This document shows, piece after piece, positions 10,722 to 56,816 of a stretch of 64,000 nucleotides of DNA (position 1 is the first letter of the stretch; every line of letters starts with the position of its first letter). The position numbers were made by a program, and so were the translations under genes. The stretch spans positions 4,588,001 to 4,652,000 of the forward strand of contig CM068756.1 of the NCBI GenBank assembly GCA_035084275.1, given 5' to 3'. This stretch comes from Hydrolagus colliei (Eukaryota). The notes beneath the pieces were generated by a model. It was not told the origin of the DNA and made no database searches. It was given only the letters and a program-made list of their open reading frames with translations.

Positions 10722-10886
10722 ACAAAGCTCCTTATGCAAGTCTCACAGGTCACTAAATATTTAGTGATAGCGCAAGTTGGTGGATCATAATTTGTGGATG
10801 GCATCAAACAATCGGAACAAATTTATTTTGCACATTCATGAATACCAATTATACATCTGCCAAATACTGTCAAACCAGTTCAAGTA

Positions 10887-11629
10887 CCGTATATCTCCGC
10901 GTATAAGGCGCACCCGCGTATAAGGCGCACCCCCCGTTTTTGACCTTTTCTTGGTGAAAAAAACCGGAAGCATTTTCAATGATATTGCCGGCAGAAGGGA
11001 GGAGAGACAGGTAGGTAGGGAGAGAGAGAGGGAGAGAGGCAGGCAGGCACGCAGGCAGGGAGGGAGGGAGGGAGGGAGAGCGGCAGGCCGGCAGCCCGGG
11101 AGAGAGAGAGGGAGAGAGGCAGGCCGGCAGCCCGGGAGAGAGAGAGGGAGAGAGGCAGGCCGGCAGCCCGGGAGGGAGAGAGGGAGAGAGGCAGGCCGGC
11201 AGCCCGGGAGAGAGAGAGGGAGAGAGGCAGGCCGGCAGCCCGGGAGAGAGAGAGGGAGGGAGAGAGGGAGGCCGGCAGCCTGGGAGAGAGAGAGAGGGAG
11301 AGATGCAGGCAGACATGCAGGCAGGGAGGGAGGGAGGGAGAGCGGCAGGGAGAGAGGCAGGCAGACTGGGTTCGGCAGAAGGTAAGCACAGCACTGAAGT
11401 CCGCTGCTGCTGCCGCTGCCCGGGCGGCCGACGCCGAAGCCCCGTCACCCGCTCCTCCCAACCCCCGCCGGACACTGACCAAACCCCGGCTGACAGCGCG
11501 CCGGCCGCCCCTCCGGTTTACTGTATTTCCGAGGCTCAAAATCTCTTGTATCTGCGTATAGGGCGCACCCCCAACTTTCGAGATCTTCCGACCTGAAAAA
11601 ATGTGCGCTTTATACGCGGAGATATACGG
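10887..11629. mobile_element. Tc1/mariner-pogo (Tc2-like, CCGTA termini) MITE, 743 bp
   Basis: 27-bp TIR CCGTATATCTCCGCGTATAAGGCGCAC with 1 mismatch. TA TSD at 10885-10886 and 11630-11631. Internal repeats of GCGTATAAGGCGCACCC near both ends. Confidence 0.9.
11085..11290 (+). repeat. 36-bp GC/purine-rich minisatellite (~5-6 copies) inside the MITE
   Basis: Unit GGCCGGCAGCCCGGGAGAGAGAGAGGGAGAGAGGCA. It explains the repetitive ORFs at 10870-11596. Confidence 0.9.
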
Positions 11630-12849
11630 TAATCATCTCCATACAGCAACCATTCCCTGTTAACAACCACCCTGGAATGGTCCGGGCAGTCCAGTTCAAA
11701 CACCAATGAACCCTTACTCTGAGGCCAACTCCTCCATGAAGGCCACTTTGGTCAAGTCCCCCGAGTGGTTGTTGAAGACCGTATGCATCACTACACTCAA
11801 CAGCAAATCCTGTGAAGCACTTTGAGATGTCTCAAAGTCACGATAAGGTACTGTATTGAATGCGAGGATTGTTCTCGTTTCTAACCTCTGTAATGTAAAT
11901 GTTAAAATGTTTGCCAAATTTGGGGCAATTTTGTGCCTGTTCAGTCAGAGTGAGGAGGGATTGGCTGAGAATGCTGAAAGTCATTTCATTATCACTAAAA
12001 CGAAACATAAAATAAAATAGATGAGATAACCCCTGAAATACTTCCCTTGTGGGAGTAGGGCAGTCGACAAGTACTGGAATGATACCAAGTTGTTTTGTTA
12101 AAAGTTTATTGACCATAACGCATGTTCAATGGTCAGTTGCTGCTTAAAAAAAAGTATGCATCACCCTCTCACCAAGTGAGTCGCTCTGAAAACATGGAAA
12201 ATGCTGAAACATTAAAATGCAGAAATATATTAAAATGCAGAAACTTGCATATATTTACCTCAAAGTCATGGAATCAGTTTCTCCAGTCATGCACACAAGT
12301 TGATCTAATTTTTATTATATGAAAAAAAAGCATTTGACGAACAATTCCGACATACAGAATTAATTCCTTACCAACTTATGAAGTTCTTTAGTACTTTTGT
12401 TACTGCTATTAATTGATCCTTCATATGGACCCCAGGAGAAGCCTTCTGACAATGTCTGACAAGCTCTCACTTGTGATTCGCTTTCCAAGTGGTTTAGCTC
12501 CAGTGACTCTGTAAATGACACAAAATAGAAACATAAACATTAAAAAAGGCACAGTATTTGCTGAATAGCTGTGATGCGGCACGCAACAACACAGCAAATG
12601 GAAAAAAAATGAAGCAATGTAATTTTCATCAATAACAGTTTAGCTACCGTGAAAATCAATGCTATCTTACAATCTTCGTTCACCTCAGTGTACAGGTGTA
12701 ATTTAACAGCCACCTTTAAATTACAATGACAAGCCTGATCCACTTGTGGGCTAGGCTTTTTATGTAGACAGCAAAGGCAGAATGAGAGAAGGTTAACTGA
12801 TTGGAGAGTCCAATCCTTTCCTCAACTGTTGTCTACTCATGTGCACATA

Positions 12850-24159: not shown

Positions 24160-24373
24160 AAACCATGGACAAGTTTTCTTACTCCACACACCTGATAATA
24201 ATCTCTCAAAAAAAACCAATAATAAATTGGTCATTTCAATCTAGACTGTTTACAGGACAATGCTGTGCGCTATTGGCTGCCGTGTTTCGCCCACAATATA
24301 CAGTCAATTCACTTTACAGTATGTATATTCTGTGAAGTGCTGTGAATCAAATGCAAGGATTAGTATTATTATT
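24160..24373 (+). mobile_element. 5'-truncated copy of the same SINE family
   Basis: Body and tail match 10396-10721. Further 3' fragments lie at about 1560-1770, 8080-8170, 11805-11870, 20395-20470, 21790-21905, 37205-37300, 37995-38130, 45370-45480, 46280-46400, 47925-48060, 51880-51980 and 59270-59365. Confidence 0.85.
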
Positions 24374-32367: not shown

Positions 32368-33962
32368 TAGCATATTACTAAAAATATAAAAGATGACTAA
32401 AAATTCATGGAACAAAGCAATGAAAGCTGGAATTTGTATGTAGCGGCTAAAAAGGAAAAAAAATTAAAGTAGGGTAACCACGTTTAGTAACTTATAACCG
32501 ATTATAACAACCGAGTTGTTTACTACCACAAGTTCTGCGATTTATATAAGAGACTAGTAGGCCTCAAAGCCACCATTAAGTGTAAATTAGAATGCATGTT
32601 TTGATGTGTTCCAGGTCAACCTACACAAAATGCCACTGCATCTTGAGGAATTTAGAAATAACACCACTTGAATTTGTACAATGCCTTTCATGCAGAATAA
32701 TTTTTTTAAAAACAAAGTTTGATGGCTGCAAGTGAGGTGTCAAAAATGGACACAGGTACAATAGAAATTAGAAAGTTTGCTGAAGTGTTTTGGACTTGAA
32801 ATCCTTATTGAAAAAGGCTCAAAGGATTCCGTAGTGTTACAGATGAAAAGACAAGCACATCAGTGTGTGTTCCACTGGGAAATAACTGCTCAATTGTAAC
32901 AAGGAACAGCAACAGATCAGGCACAATGAAATTCTTCAGTGTCTGGTCATGTAACGCAAGTGAAACATAACAGATAGGTACATAACATTGGAGAAGCCAG
33001 GAAATGTTTAGTAGGAATGGGCCACAACTATGCCTGTCACAACACATGTACACTTCACACCTCTGAATTGTGGACTTGAGGTACTCACAGTGAGGTGCAG
33101 ATAAAAGGAAAGACCTCGGTTTGGAAATTATACATTGAAAATCAATTTGGGCAGAGACTTGAAAGCTGTCAGAATAATTTTTTTAAAAATTATCCCCATA
33201 GTGACTATTAAGAGACAAAATACAAAGGGTCAGGAAGGTTCTTTACAGAGAAACAGAAGAATATTTCCCTCACATTATTTTTTCATTTAGTCTTCTTGCT
33301 GTTTGTGAGATATTGTTAGTGTTGGCGTTGTGATTGTCTCACAACAAAAAGCAACACACTGCACAAAAATGCTTAACATATTTCAATGTGGTAAGAGGAT
33401 TTCAGGCAAAAGTAACCGTTTTAAAATTATTTTCTGATCAAATTAATTTGTAAGGAGATACAGAAAACGAGCTTGAGCTCCCAAGTCATTTACAATTATA
33501 ATGACCGTTAAGATCAGAAGAAATTCCAGGTGGCAACACATTTAAGTCAATAAAATGTCCAGTCCCTATCACTCGCATCTCCCAGTAACACAAGTCACAA
33601 CTGCAAGCACTGACCTCAAAAAAACACCAACTCTTTCCCCGAATCCCTTTAGCTGATAAGTGAAATGGCTGGAATGTGGTTGATAGCCAGTCTATTACAA
33701 CGGGGAGGTTTGAAATACCCACTATCATCCAATGTATCATCATCCTCCCATCAGCTCCAGACCACAGAACAATTAATATTCAGAACAATTGCTGCTGCGA
33801 TGGCAGGCTGTGAGATAGTGATATGATTCTGCAACACAGTATCTTAATAATAAATACTCAAACCCTTTCATTGGCCCATTACTTTATGGTTGTACTTGTT
33901 TTTCGGTCTGCCTGTTAAGAAATAGTTGTCTTAGTTTCATGAGTTTTAGTTTCATGCCCTTT

Positions 33963-34816
33963 AAAGATGGTGGCGGCGGCGGAGGAGGATTAAGTGCCGC
34001 CGCTCACCGAAACCGCTACCGAGATTTGGGCCGGTTGTGCAGGATGCAGAGCTACACACCACCGTGCGTCTGCGGGGAGCTGGGGCAGGTCCGCCTGACC
34101 ACGGGCTTTTCATCGTCATTGGCCATGGACGAGGTGAACTCGCTCGACAACGACGTCTTCGGGCAGTTCCCCTGCGAGGTCTTTCACCCGGTCCGGTGCT
34201 GCAAGTGGCGGATCATCTCGTGGAGGGAGATCCAGACGGCGATCGGGCTGCGGCTGTGGCTGCTGCTGTGCGGACTGGTTTTGGGGCCTGTTGCCACACT
34301 CTGCCCTGTTTCCCAACGTTTTGAAAATCGTCCGGGCGGGAGGCGGGGAGAAGGAGCGGTTGCTGGACTGTTGTTAGTTGTTGATTGCTATTATTTTTCT
34401 CTTCCCCCTTATCCCCTTCTCTCCCTCTTTCCTCTTGTCCCGCTTTCTCCCTGATTTTGCCCCTCACCCACCTTTACCTCCCTCTCTCCTTTGCCCCCCC
34501 TTTCTCCCCCTTCTTCCTCCCTGACTTTGCTCTACACCACCTTTCCCTCCCTCTCCCCCTTTGCTCTCTTTTCCCCCTTTCTCCCCTGGCCCCATTTCTG
34601 TGACTGTTTGTGGGACACTGCTGTGTGCAATTTAGCTGCCGTGTTTCGCTCACAAATATACAGTCAATTTTCCTACTCTTCTTCGTCCTGCCGCAACCCC
34701 TCCCTCACCTGCTCTTGTCCCTACCTAACTGTACAGCGCCTTGGGACGTCTTCTCGATGTGAAAGGCGCTATATAAATGTAAGTTTTGACTGATTGATTG
34801 ATTGGTTGATTGATTG
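33963..34816 (+). mobile_element. Chimeric non-autonomous retroposon: GC-rich 5' part with H2B-derived segment, CT-rich spacer, SINE body fragment, L2-type tail and (GATT)n end
   Basis: Sharp GC/CpG contrast with the flanks. 34593-34670 matches the body of the local SINE family. 34730-34787 is the tail tgtacagcgccttgggacgtc...gtgaaaggcgctatataaatgtaag, followed by a GATT microsatellite. Confidence 0.65.
34041..34256 (+). pseudogene. H2B: Diverged histone H2B-derived segment (histone-fold core) within open ORF 33939-34454
   Basis: RMQSYTPPCVCGELGQVRLTTGFSSSLAMDEVNSLDNDVFGQFPCEVFHPVRCCKWRIISWREIQTAIGLRL aligns by eye to canonical H2B [70 protein letters not shown] (29/72 identities, two single-codon insertions, REIQTA intact). 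GC-rich histone-like codons. No Lys-rich N-tail, no alphaC helix and no histone stem-loop. Confidence 0.85.
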
Positions 34817-37800
34817 TAAAATTTAAAGCATAAAATGATTCCTGAAAATTAATGTGGCCTGTTAATTAATTTTAGCCCATTTTATTCTTAATACTTATGA
34901 GAAACAAAATTTCCAATTCCTTACCTTTCAGAATGGGGTAGGTACAACCACAGCAATTTGATACAATAAATTTACATAAAAAAGGGTAGATATTGCGGTT
35001 AAAACATATTCAGAAATATACATTTAAGACATCAATGCAATTAAGGAAAGGCCTGAGCAATCCTCAAGGTGTGAGATATTCCTCAGTCATTAAGTGTGGG
35101 TCCAAAATGGAATAATATAATTTTTGTTTCCATTTCAACAACATACAGTATTGTGCAAATCATGGTGAGAGGAATTGGGAGCTCTATTATCAGCAGTTCA
35201 TTCTATAATTAAATATTCTGCCATATAATCAGTTTCACAAAAATAAATGATATTCAAATTTTATGTCTTTTAAATGTCTTGTAACATAATAATATGCATT
35301 GATCATATAAATGTCCCACAAACAGTCACACGGCGAATGAGCAATTTTATCTGTGGGGGATTGTTGGCCAGGATACTGGGAGAAATTCCCTTGCTGAGTT
35401 CCATCACTCTTGACCCAGCTCTGGGGAATATGATGCAATCTACTGTGGCTGAAAGCTCCACTGACACGATAGCTCCACTACAACCATCAACTGTATTTTA
35501 AGTACAGATGTATTGGACAATCCAGGACTGCCCCAACTGTGTGTGTATATCATACACAGGTCAAGTCTCTGACAGAATCAGAAAAGGGTGAAATTGCATT
35601 TACGCACATTAGGCTGTTTAACAAAGCTTGTGAATAACTGTCAAGTTTGTGTTCAGACAGGGCTTGTTGACTCTTCCTAGGGGTATAATCTGATCCTGCT
35701 AATATGTGCCCCACCTCCTTTGCAACCAGTTTCTGTTCCCCAGGATGATAGCTGTTGCAATCAGTGATGAAGCTTTGCTTCAGTGCTTCCTCCAAGTTTA
35801 TTTACTGCAGCAGAATTGATACTGAGTCTGTAACTGAAACATCCCGTTGCATCAACCACACAATGATTGCTGGGTGCCAAAGTTCACTGGATCCACTGTA
35901 GAATAATTATCTCAACAGGCATTTCACTCTACAACAATTCATGTTACTACCTTGTTAAAGACAATGTGGAGAAATATACACTGTCTCTTAGTTGATAACA
36001 CTTTAAATGGCAATTCAGATATAATTTTCACATGCTTAGTTTGGACAACAATCAACCTATCAGTCACTTGTTCTCTAACACATTACATTTAACCAATAAT
36101 CTCATGCACCAAATTTCATTCTGATGCTTATGGTTTATTATGGTAAAACGATGCAGTTATTTCATTTGGTATAAACAATAGCACACTAAACAACTCTTCA
36201 AGCATTTTGATCCAAACTAATTTGCATGCAAGAGAATAAAGGAACTAAAAACCATCCTAAGCCTGGTTACGATGGATGAGATCTAGAAAGTAATTTAGTT
36301 ACTTGGTGCGAAACATTATTTAAAATACTCCTTGCCAACTTCGGCATGTGTTATTTCCCAGGCTGTATTAACATAATAAAATGAAATGCTTATCAACAAC
36401 ATAATATTCAAAAGATATAAGCCTCTGTATATAAACTGAAGCCTGGAATCATATTTGCTAGTAAGCATATGCTCCTCTGGGCACGGGGGAGGGGGGAAGG
36501 AAAGAAAAAATAGTTCTGTAACTCAGCAGAAAACTAGATACCTTTACTGTGTTTTGAACATAACTTGATAAACAAATGCTTTAAATGATGGACTGCCAAT
36601 GTTTTCTCATTTGCATAAGAAAGTCATAGAATAATCAATTTAAATACCTGGTGGTGGAGTATAATAACAACAACAACATTACACTTGTATAGCGCCTTTC
36701 ACGTCAGGAGGATGTCCCAAGGAGCAGGAGACAAAAGACCCAAATGCAAATCCCAGGCCAAACTGACATTGAAGGGATATTGGAGGATAAGACTTTACTG
36801 AAGCCTTATCCTTAAGTACTTGTTTGAAAAATACAAGCTTTTTACATGCATTTGGTTTTAAAATGGAGCACAGACCTGTATTTTTCCACTCAAGGATAAA
36901 TTTACCATAGGATCTTATCCTCAAGCATCCCTTTAATGTTAACCAGCCTTGTGGGTTTTGCAAGTTCTCTGTTTGCACTCTGTGGGCCCGTTTACAATGT
37001 ACAGAATCGCATCTTGTCACTCGGCCTGTCACTGAGTGGCAATAGCAGTCAGAGACACGTTACCAGCTTCAGATTGTCTTGAAATGTCAGTGAGAACTAA
37101 CAGGGTGGGTTCTTGTGGTTATTTTAAAATTTCCGCCCTGTCCAGAGGTTGGGGGAGGGAGGCGGTAGGGGGTAGACAGAATCTAAACACAACTTTTATT
37201 GATAATAATTAATAATAATCTTGTGTTTGATATAGCACCTTGTACTGCAAAGTCTCAAAGTACTTCAGAATTTCCTGTAACGTGTAGTGCACGTAAATTT
37301 TGTAAGTGAACATAATTTTTTAAGACTTCAAACAGCAATATAGAAAGCGCATACTTGGATAATCTGTTATCCACATTCATTTGCCAAGGTCACACAGCAC
37401 AACTGTGATGCAATTATAAAATTATAAGGTTATAGTATTTAAAATATAAAAACTAACTAGTGTTGAAAGTGCTGCATTTCAAAGTCAACACAGCAGCAAA
37501 TTCACTTGGCTTAGCAAATGGAGAATAGTCCAGAGTACACATTAACAATCCATGATACAGTGAGTGATCCCCCAGGAGCCAAAACTAAGCTGTTTACAAA
37601 CATATATTCCTTACAGCAAGGACGCTGGGATGGTAGGAAGTGTATCCCTCGAAAGCCACCGTCGAATTCCCAAATCACTCGACCAGTAAAGAGACATTCT
37701 TATCGCAGTATCCACACAGATCCTTATAAAACCCAAATAATGGAATGCCAAACCACCACAAAATACTTCAAAGCGTTACAGAGACTAGTATCTGAGTTCA

Positions 37801-55089: not shown

Positions 55090-56816
55090 GCTTGCTTGAG
55101 TCCTTAATTAAAGATGTCGTTATGGGATACCATAACAAGATTAGGCAGAGTCAGCATGGCTTTACAAAAGGGAAGTCATGCTTAACTAATCTTTCAGAGT
55201 TTTTTGAGGATGTATCTAGCAAGTTGGATAAGGGGGAAACCAGTAGATGTGGTATATTTAGATTTTAAGAAGGCATTTGATAAAGTGCCAAACAAAAGGC
55301 TAATGCACAAAGTCAAGGCCCATGGGATTAATGGGAACATATTAGCATGGATAGAAGAATGGCTAACGGGTAGAAAACAGAGTAAGGATACACGGGTCAT
55401 TCTCGAATTGGCAGGATGTAACTGGTGGAGTGCCACAAGGATCAGTGCTTGGGCCTCAGCTATTTAGAATTTACATCAATGATCTAGATGAGGACATTGA
55501 ATGTAATGTGTCTAAATTCGCGGATGACACTAAACTAGTAGGAGTCAGCTATGAAGATGATACAAAAAGATTGCAATGGGATATAGATAGGCTAGGGGAG
55601 TGGGCAAGTAGGTGGCAGATGGAATTTAATGTGGGGAAATGTGAAATTATTCACCTAGGTAGAAAAAATAAAAAAACTAATTATTTTCTAGATGGGGAAA
55701 GGTTAGATAGGGATTTGGGTGTCCTTGTACACCAGTCTCAAAAAATTAGTTTGCAGGTAGGTGCAGCAAGAAACTAAGAAGGCAAATGGTATGTTAGCAT
55801 TCATTGCAAAAGGTTTAGAGTACAAGAGTAGGGAAGTCTTGCTGCAACTGTATAAGGCCTTTGTGAGACCTCACCTAGATTATTGTGGGCAATTTTGGTC
55901 TCCTTATTTAATAAAGGACATACTTGCCTTAGAGGGGGTGCAGCGTAGATTCACTAGGTTAGTTTCTGGGATGAGGGGACTGACCTATGAGGATAAGGAT
56001 AGGTTGAATAAACGAGGGCTGTATTCTCCAGAATACAGAAGAATTAGGGGAGATCTTATTGGAACACATAAGATTATTAAAGGGCTGGATAAAGCAGACA
56101 GTGAGGGACTGTTTCCCTTGGTGGGAGAATCTATAACCAGGGGTCATAATCTTAAAATTAAGGGTCAGTCTTTCAGAACAGAGTTGAGGAAACGTTCCTT
56201 CACTTGGAGGTAGTGAATTTATGGAATTCACTACCCCAGAAGGCTGCAGATGCTCAGTCCTTGAACATTTTCAAGGCTGAGACTAGGGTCCGTCGATATT
56301 GAAATTTTCCGATATCGATATATCGGTTTGCCCATATCTATATATCGCCGATATATCAATATATACAGAATATCGATATATATCGATATCGCGGGGTATT
56401 TTTGTCCTGCGCATGCGCGCGCATTCCGGTGTGTATGCGCATTCGGATATTGACAAGGTAAGTTGAAAAAGTCTGCATTGTACCGATATATCGCCGGACA
56501 CGATATATCGATATTTGCGATATATCGATTTTTTTTTACATATCGAATTTTTCGATATATTGATATATTTTAAATTCCGATATCGGCATATCGATATGAA
56601 AATTATATCAGATATAACCGATATATTGATATATCGCCAGACCCTAGCTGAGACTGATAGATTTTTTTAAAAATAGAGGGATTAGGGCATATGGGGATAG
56701 GGCAGGTAATTAGAGTTAGGTCAGAAGATCAGCCATGATCTTATCAAATGGCGGGGCAGGCTCGAGGGGCCGAATGGCGTATTCCTGCTCCTAATTCTTA
56801 TGTTCTTATGTTCTTA
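55090..56816 (+). mobile_element. 5'-truncated CR1 LINE (RT domain to 3' UTR), frameshifted and interrupted by a hAT MITE
   Basis: Motifs QHGF..KSCLTNL, VYLDFKKAFDKVP, PQGSVLGP, FADDTKL and RPHLDYC..FWSP spread over several frames. CR1-type 3' terminal repeat (TTCTTATG)n at ~56795-56816. Confidence 0.95.
56284..56646. mobile_element. Non-autonomous hAT (Ac-like) MITE, 363 bp, nested in CR1
   Basis: TIRs TAGGGTCCGTCGATAT and (revcomp) TAGGGTCTGGCGATAT. Perfect 8-bp TSD GCTGAGAC at 56276-56283 and 56647-56654. Dense CGATAT/ATATCG subterminal motifs. Confidence 0.92.

Follow-up and report, generated by a model that had tools for sequence, protein, structure and literature searches.

The segment at 33963-34816 of the window (the whole 64,000-nt stretch of Hydrolagus colliei DNA that was analysed) is a single decayed, internally deleted copy of a dispersed family of non-autonomous retroposons with several hundred copies. 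In the reading that we favour, with a probability of about 0.85, the family is a non-coding composite of a histone H2B variant, a piece of RUNDC1 and a 3' part made of CT-rich, SINE and L2 sequence, in which the H2B piece was likely added by splicing and whose copying is likely carried out by an L2 reverse transcriptase (RT). The original prediction of a multi-copy, histone-bearing, non-autonomous retroposon with an L2-type tail was borne out by a DNA search of the host's own genome, by 22-mer counts and by the collinearity of the loci found.

A dispersed family and its copy in the window

In the own-genome search, for which 40 loci were scored of 583 candidates, the module order of the window copy was repeated in 30 of the 30 best loci. 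A 22-mer from the middle of H2B matched the genome at 83 places with up to two mismatches (control, 0) and recovered 21 of these 30 loci, suggesting that roughly 120 copies reach the middle of H2B. With a 22-mer spanning the 3' joint of H2B (H2B/RUNDC1), 588 matches were obtained at up to three mismatches (control, 1), a figure in which sisters duplicated as DNA and differently headed descendants are counted. Of the 30 best loci, 16 begin with the AAGATGG-type motif, four of these being one duplicated locus, and most of the 30 end in the same tail. The flanks are mostly unrelated, only four flank-sharing pairs being detected among 89 loci.

Forty further joint-bearing copies were fetched, which were picked as not yet fetched and are thus biased to short ones; one was of full length, five were cut in the 5' half and 34 had lost over 200 nt from the start of the reference head, including three with a UQCC2 head in its place. 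This loss of heads is the pattern of LINE-type 5' truncation, and the family has the common 3' end with a microsatellite and the random 5' truncation of an L2-mobilised non-autonomous retroposon. When the tails of 103 dispersed loci were classified, 43 were GATT, 14 the ATT tail of the local SINE and one GTT, with six unclassified and 39 in which no tail was found. No excess of target-site duplications was detected in 23 copies (mean longest shared word 4.52 vs. 4.25 in shuffled sequence, with 30 of 300 shuffles as high).

The pieces originally described within the element were all present where they had been placed, and are listed in Table 1. The island that they form is rich in GC (0.57-0.64 at 34000-34599 vs. 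0.29-0.44 in the flanking bins) and in CpG (observed/expected 0.94 vs. 0.36 across the whole window). About 75 bp of local SINE body and the L2-type tail were both confirmed, the latter extending over 34668-34804 when aligned to a host L2 copy with a 1110-aa RT/endonuclease frame. The CT-rich spacer also exists, but the RUNDC1 exon-1 remnant in front of it had been overlooked. The AAGATGG-type start, which we take to resemble a YY1 site, may have a promoter role, and the GC-rich head of the element may be transcribed by Pol II.

Table 1. Parts of the window copy and the open frame that overlaps them (positions in the window).
Feature	Position	Strand	Basis
5' end of the family: AAGATGG-type start and 8-codon uORF (33967-33993)	33963-33993	+	Motif starts 16/30 loci; uORF read from sequence
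Histone H2B variant CDS fragment (end of N-tail and histone fold), heavily A>G-changed	33976-34278	+	Donor alignment; phmmer
Private deletion of ~72 nt, with loss of the C-terminal end of H2B, of the frameshift common in the family and of the joint between H2B and RUNDC1	34276-34277	+	Alignment to subfamily majority built without the window copy
RUNDC1 exon-1 remnant, middle deleted family-wide in dispersed copies	34277-34368	+	RUNDC1 match of older copy L117; continuity across copy types
GTT-rich block, reduced by a ~133-nt deletion relative to the subfamily	34369-34395	+	Alignment to subfamily majority
CT-rich block, common to all stages of the family	34396-34592	+	Copy comparison
Piece of local SINE 3' body	34593-34669	+	65/75 nt identical to the SINE at window ~24230-24310
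L2-type 3' end with stem-loop at 34730-34775	34668-34787	+	99/134 nt identical to host L2 L219; same fold
(GATT)n terminal repeat	34788-34816	+	Read from sequence; GATT class in 43/103 dispersed loci
171-aa open frame, judged accidental	33939-34454	+	Starts in flank; no Pfam match; family dN/dS 0.99

Both junctions of the element were spanned by contigs of a DNA run (0 and 3 differences), which excludes an assembly artefact, although this run is probably of the same species or sample as the assembly and does not count as independent support; no junction skipping the element, as expected from an empty allele, was found in it. An Rfam scan of 33000-36000 gave one match at chance level (E 0.062).

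Two other places in the window were noted. At 10840-11630 there is a GA-rich 36-nt tandem array with a repeated GCGTATAAGGCGCACC motif on its flanks, possibly a non-autonomous DNA transposon (a guess), and at 55367-56210 a CR1-like RT fragment is followed by AT-rich palindromic repeats at 56305-56571.

The histone donor gene and a one-strand A>G drift

The 72-codon likeness to H2B that had been aligned by eye was reproduced by phmmer, in whose alignment residues 35-106 of the window ORF agree with H2B at 29 of 72 positions. The best E, 6e-9, was obtained for a chain with two copies of H2B, and single chains were matched at about 5e-4. The Pfam Histone model (PF00125), proposed as a check on the frame 33939-34454, did not match it, and neither this ORF nor two overlapping frames gave any match in a Pfam scan; PF00125 does match an older family copy (E 2e-13) and the donor gene.

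As judged from alignments and a tree, the H2B part derives from one specific variant gene, L056 (G000:C194:23475-23918), and not from the canonical cluster. The window copy is identical to L056 at 202 of 270 nt, and in a separate comparison across genes the identity was 76% to L056 vs. 65-69% to seven other H2B genes. When eight host H2B genes were compared, L056 was the closest to all 20 loci on C28 and to 95 of 101 dispersed loci, with a mean identity of 0.78 compared with 0.70-0.72 for the others. In a tree with canonical H2B genes as outgroup and a bootstrap not fully settled, L056 was sister to all copies (support 97/80) and the dispersed family, set off by a 100/100 branch, was arranged as a ladder of subfamilies; some partly unrelated rows had been taken into this tree (long branches L176, L188, L179, L174 and L217) and were kept out of later counts. 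In L056 a TATA box is present, AATAAA lies about 245 nt past the stop codon and a stem-loop is found further downstream, the order of the last two making unneeded the earlier argument that histone mRNAs end in a stem-loop rather than in poly(A). Since its histone fold is 99-100% identical to two Callorhinchus milii variants ('late histone H2B.L4-like' proteins), the donor is a good stand-in for the ancestral state. Its N-tail is rich in Ser, Gly and Arg, and it belongs to a small cluster of divergent H2B variants (L056, L058-L060) at 21-54 kb of G000:C194. Decayed copies of other H2B variants, outside the family, were seen at C2:29.11 Mb (L212), C14:7.43 Mb (L216) and C3:19.32 Mb (L063); L212 and L216 were likewise kept out of the later counts.

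About 20 early copies with H2B and RUNDC1 lie on C28 (8.40-8.71 Mb; L099-L117, L120, L239-L250) within DNA-duplicated units of 11-15 kb. At this stage a 5'-shortened form with the AAGATGG start became the source, and one early copy was multiplied about 20 times on C28 by duplication of DNA. The units are tandem and inverted, 80-94% alike and without an obvious gene.

Base changes were counted at sites where old-type copies have the same base as the donor. On the sense strand, A>G was found at 12, 15 and 24 of 57 A in the basal, middle and window groups (8, 12 and 18 copies), compared with T>C at 2, 2 and 3 of 42 T (Fisher p 0.019, 0.004 and 7e-5, respectively); a second alignment gave 23/62 vs. 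3/42. Private changes were symmetric, with A>G and T>C at 0.0104 vs. 0.0130 in the window subfamily, 0.0062 vs. 0.0070 in 39 other copies and 0.0033 vs. 0.0076 in 18 C28 copies, and the bias therefore arose in the source lineage. The divergence of the H2B protein in the window is mostly due to A>G changes on one strand that became fixed step by step in that lineage. Such a drift explains what had appeared as a puzzle, a protein so diverged in a sequence that keeps so many CpGs.

On balance, A-to-I editing of RNA that was then written back into DNA would be the likeliest cause of the A>G changes that built up in the source lineage. Less likely, but possible, is that the changes come instead from misincorporation by RT, from transcription-linked mutation at the source loci or from selection on the source RNA, without ADAR. 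A cause of this kind would fit the near absence of private A>G clusters, which are expected from frequent editing, the small counts behind the neighbour preference (5' A 7/11, T 4/8, C 8/26 and G 4/17) and the lack of significant A>G bias in two short RUNDC1 remnants (0/13 and 3/11 A), but it is at odds with the size of the bias (42% of A vs. 7% of T) and with its absence from both the private changes and the DNA-duplicated C28 copies. GC-biased conversion would be strand-symmetric, which counts against it as the cause.

The insertion itself had been taken to be young, but the window copy was found to be 6.6% off the majority of its subfamily (722 non-CpG sites, the majority being built without the window copy), with CpG transitions at 12% of 117 positions; the members of the subfamily average 7.4% and 14.6%, respectively. 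With the rough clock of 1.0-1.1e-3 per site per My of PMC5499810, its age would be about 60 My, and it is thus not young. The long-evolving source lineage postulated at the same time was recovered as a ladder of subfamilies with cumulative changes.

The RUNDC1-headed precursor and its joint with H2B

In older copies, the stretch 3' of H2B translates to the N-terminus of RUNDC1; the segment from L117 matched C. milii RUNDC1 with an E of 1.8e-19 and 63% identity, and almost all named matches were RUNDC1. Copies without H2B were also found, in which the RUNDC1 5'UTR and start codon are followed by the same GTT, CT-rich, SINE and L2 parts. Therefore, RUNDC1-headed elements came first, and H2B was added to one of them rather than being captured directly onto a SINE/L2 tail, as had been supposed. 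The precursor consists of the RUNDC1 5'UTR and about 110 codons, followed by GTT, the CT-rich block, the SINE piece and the L2 end.

The longest precursor copy opens with 64 nt that share 89% identity with a CpG-island exon at C6:67604056, where the match stops at a GT donor, and its next piece is also found on C30, behind an acceptor-like site. This region of C6 holds a 1.5-kb inverted pair (L315 and L316; G000:C6:67573756-67575321 and 67603049-67604541), 28 kb apart and 90% alike, carrying the CpG-island exon with a AAGATGGCGGC start and a 5-codon upstream ORF, which supplied the 5' end of the precursor; a second exon of the C6 gene was not found within 200 kb. When searched with two protein queries, the full protein and its C-terminal half, the RUNDC1 parent gene was not found beyond residues 1-115, which may reflect an assembly gap or loss of the gene, and for this reason the RUNDC1 part cannot be polarised. 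Two tail-only L2-type stubs (hairpin and GTT repeat) were observed inserted inside the RUNDC1 piece (L120 and L300).

At the joint, the donor L056 reads CAGCT^GTAAAT, four of four precursor copies read GAG^GAGGAGCC and the fused elements read CAGCT-GAGGAGCC, this commonest core being present in 69 of the 98 copies in which the joint was found (128 examined). The joint thus falls exactly at a GT in the histone gene and at an AG in the precursor, following the GT-AG rule, and the cryptic donor site agrees with the usual splice consensus at five of the six intron positions. These data argue that H2B was probably joined to the RUNDC1-headed precursor by RNA splicing, in which a cryptic GT lying two codons ahead of the stop codon in a transcript of the H2B variant would have been linked to an AG within RUNDC1.

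Less in keeping with the data, and in our view rather unlikely, is an origin of the same family by template switching of the RT, from tail RNA to H2B mRNA and possibly back to the 5' end of the precursor. There is a 1-nt microhomology at the joint, SINE-tail swaps in 14 of 103 loci show that switching happens, and the precursor head also starts with AAGATGGCGGC and shares GCGGAGGAGCAG with the H2B donor. Splicing is further weakened by an AG acceptor lacking a good pyrimidine tract and by the absence of a RUNDC1-bearing precursor, once needed for cis-splicing, from the 67.5-kb contig of the donor, on which a search beside the histone gene brought up only a 5'-truncated late-type copy 17 kb downstream. 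However, GT and AG would both fall exactly at the joint by chance in about 1 of 100 cases (a rough estimate), the head match of the precursor itself likewise ends at a GT donor, and the alignment score of the old-type head is far higher with the donor (81) than with the precursor heads (23-27). A double template switch was also considered as the origin of the head, and is weakened by these scores together with the GT/AG joint.

After the proposed splicing step, a form with the middle of RUNDC1 deleted, the form of the window copy, spread through the genome as successive subfamilies that swapped their tails among GTT, GATT and the ATT of the local SINE. A younger branch, represented by three of the 40 newly fetched joint-bearing copies, exchanged most of H2B for an exon of UQCC2 (Pfam PF20180, E 4e-9). 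Identity among these three copies is 97-98.5%, and the joint and the RUNDC1 deletion are retained in them. The best tree (44 of 46 rows) places them within the H2B-headed family, although a placement outside it was not rejected by an AU test (p 0.17).

Probable partner LINE, related systems and coding status

Among 24 host RT loci, the L2-type copies end in the same tail of about 55 nt followed by GTT repeats, and their frame for RT and endonuclease reaches 1110 aa with the Pfam domains RVT_1 and endonuclease. A bulged hairpin of the same shape is formed by the last ~120 nt of the window element and by the host L2 end (z -2.8 for both). The partner LINE is accordingly judged a probable member of the L2 clade from its tail, its Pfam domains and an L2-like RT motif. 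It is likely that the host L2 RT copies the family by recognising the tail hairpin; for several LINEs it is established that the 3' end is recognised stringently (PMC3747384, in the sections cited) and SINEs of C. milii use an L2 tail (PMC5499810, likewise). Another non-LTR element, whose copies are near-identical and which has an RT frame of 1134 aa and an unrelated tail (L129-L158; C40, C15, C6, C23 and others), often in tandem arrays of ~6.8 kb, looks recently active.

The copies would very improbably be ordinary processed pseudogenes of one chimeric host transcript, made from a single source gene and not self-propagating, even though every part comes from host genes and the copy number is low for a SINE: the ladder of subfamilies has shared, cumulative changes that lead far from the conserved donor gene, heads and tails were replaced in sub-branches, and an intact source gene was not found.

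As for known systems, the family shares with classical SINEs a 3' tail common to a partner LINE and a dispersed, multi-copy, non-coding and uniform structure, but its head maps to H2B coding sequence and not to a tRNA, 5S, 7SL or snRNA with a Pol III promoter. It appears to work like SVA_F1 and the pt_SVA_D6 of the chimpanzee, but on an L2 tail, yet is neither an SVA nor a classical SINE. According to the sections of PMC6139936 cited here, in those two families the 5' part was replaced through splicing by a GC-rich host exon (MAST2 exon 1 and STK40 exon 1, respectively), there are about 84-94 copies, more exons were added 5' in sub-branches, and the exon trapped by SVA_F1 can act as an internal promoter. 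The chimaera family is likewise a non-autonomous composite retroposon with a GC-rich host piece as its 5' part and further heads in sub-branches. In contrast to SVA, it has no Alu, VNTR, SINE-R, poly(A) or excess of target-site duplications, its modules being H2B, RUNDC1, a SINE body and an L2 end; relative to SVA_F1 as described there, its partner is L2-type with a hairpin tail instead of L1, its captured piece, probably taken over via a cryptic donor, is from a histone gene without introns, its heads were replaced serially (RUNDC1, H2B, UQCC2), it is much older and it shows the strand-biased A>G drift.

Closer in host, CmiSINE (SINE2-1_CM/2B-1_CM) and SacSINE1-CM of C. milii are also holocephalan and non-autonomous, with a tail related to L2-2_CM and modules exchanged by recombination or template switch, but have tRNA heads with A and B boxes and CORE or Deu domains (PMC5499810, sections cited), whereas the head here is from protein-coding genes; 'histone' occurs once in that paper, in an unrelated sense. 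Pieces of host RNA on a stringent LINE tail were amplified also in snoRTE/PlatSINE1, SINEU, the SINE28 type and bird SINEs with GC-rich heads, although in the parts of PMC7245038 and PMC5499810 cited these heads are non-coding RNAs or GC-rich sequence and not, as here, identifiable coding exons. Processed pseudogenes mobilised by L1 are similarly mRNA-derived, 5'-truncated and subject to neutral decay, but need relaxed recognition of poly(A), whereas here pieces of mRNA travel on the tail of a specific LINE, and copies became sources in their own right (PMC3747384, sections cited). No description of an H2B/RUNDC1/L2-tail family was found among the papers listed in literature searches. New points are which gene was the donor, that there was a RUNDC1 stage, that the joint lies at GT and AG, and in what order the steps came.

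In the usual view, L2 and similar LINEs copy no RNAs other than those with their own 3' end, and for this reason copies of mRNA have been tied to L1 (PMC3747384, in the sections cited). The family represents a way round this stringency, in which coding pieces, including a histone, were added serially to an L2 tail and reached hundreds of sites. More tentatively, at somewhat less than even odds, it could be a lineage of L2 parasites, tens of My old, whose Pol II head was repeatedly renewed by spliced-in CpG-island pieces (the C6 exon, RUNDC1, the H2B variant and UQCC2) and whose evolution was driven mainly by A-to-I editing written into DNA. If so, it would be a second system of the SVA kind, independent and datable, in which germline mutation driven by editing has left a fossil record. 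Both the succession of captures and the A>G drift are open to direct reading and testing, since the donor histone has hardly changed and precursors, intermediates and descendants are all still present.

Regarding coding status, the predicted stop-free 171-aa ORF does exist, but the expectation that it might encode a histone-fold fusion peptide was not sustained. In 78 copies, left from 128 loci after removal of the 20 on C28, another 5, 14 duplicated sisters and 11 failing coverage, dN was 0.145 and dS 0.146 (dN/dS 0.99), a -1 frameshift was common to 58 and in-frame stops were present in 35; an automatic count gave a frameshifting gap in 78 of 78, some of these being possibly alignment artefacts. 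By this measure, the copies evolve neutrally after insertion, without purifying selection on the H2B frame. In the window, the frame starts outside the element, in its flank, and owes its openness to the private deletion of ~72 nt, which took out the frameshifted part and the stop, and no homologue was found for this ORF at E<=0.001 among 189 candidates in a protein database. A functional histone-fold/hydrophobic-tail peptide from the window copy is scarcely credible, since against a stop-free frame with an in-frame ATG at 34044 and whole-codon indels in residues 35-106 stand the dN/dS, the shared frameshift and the stops of the family, the lack of a Pfam match and a frame open through a private deletion. 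The low dN/dS of C28 copies compared with the donor (0.24-0.46) was discarded as a sign of function, as most of these copies carry stops or frameshifts and CpG decay strikes third positions. For annotation, more than 100 H2B-like matches in the genome of Hydrolagus colliei are repeat copies and not histone genes. One copy on C28, L099/L062, retains a 106-aa frame with a Pfam histone match.
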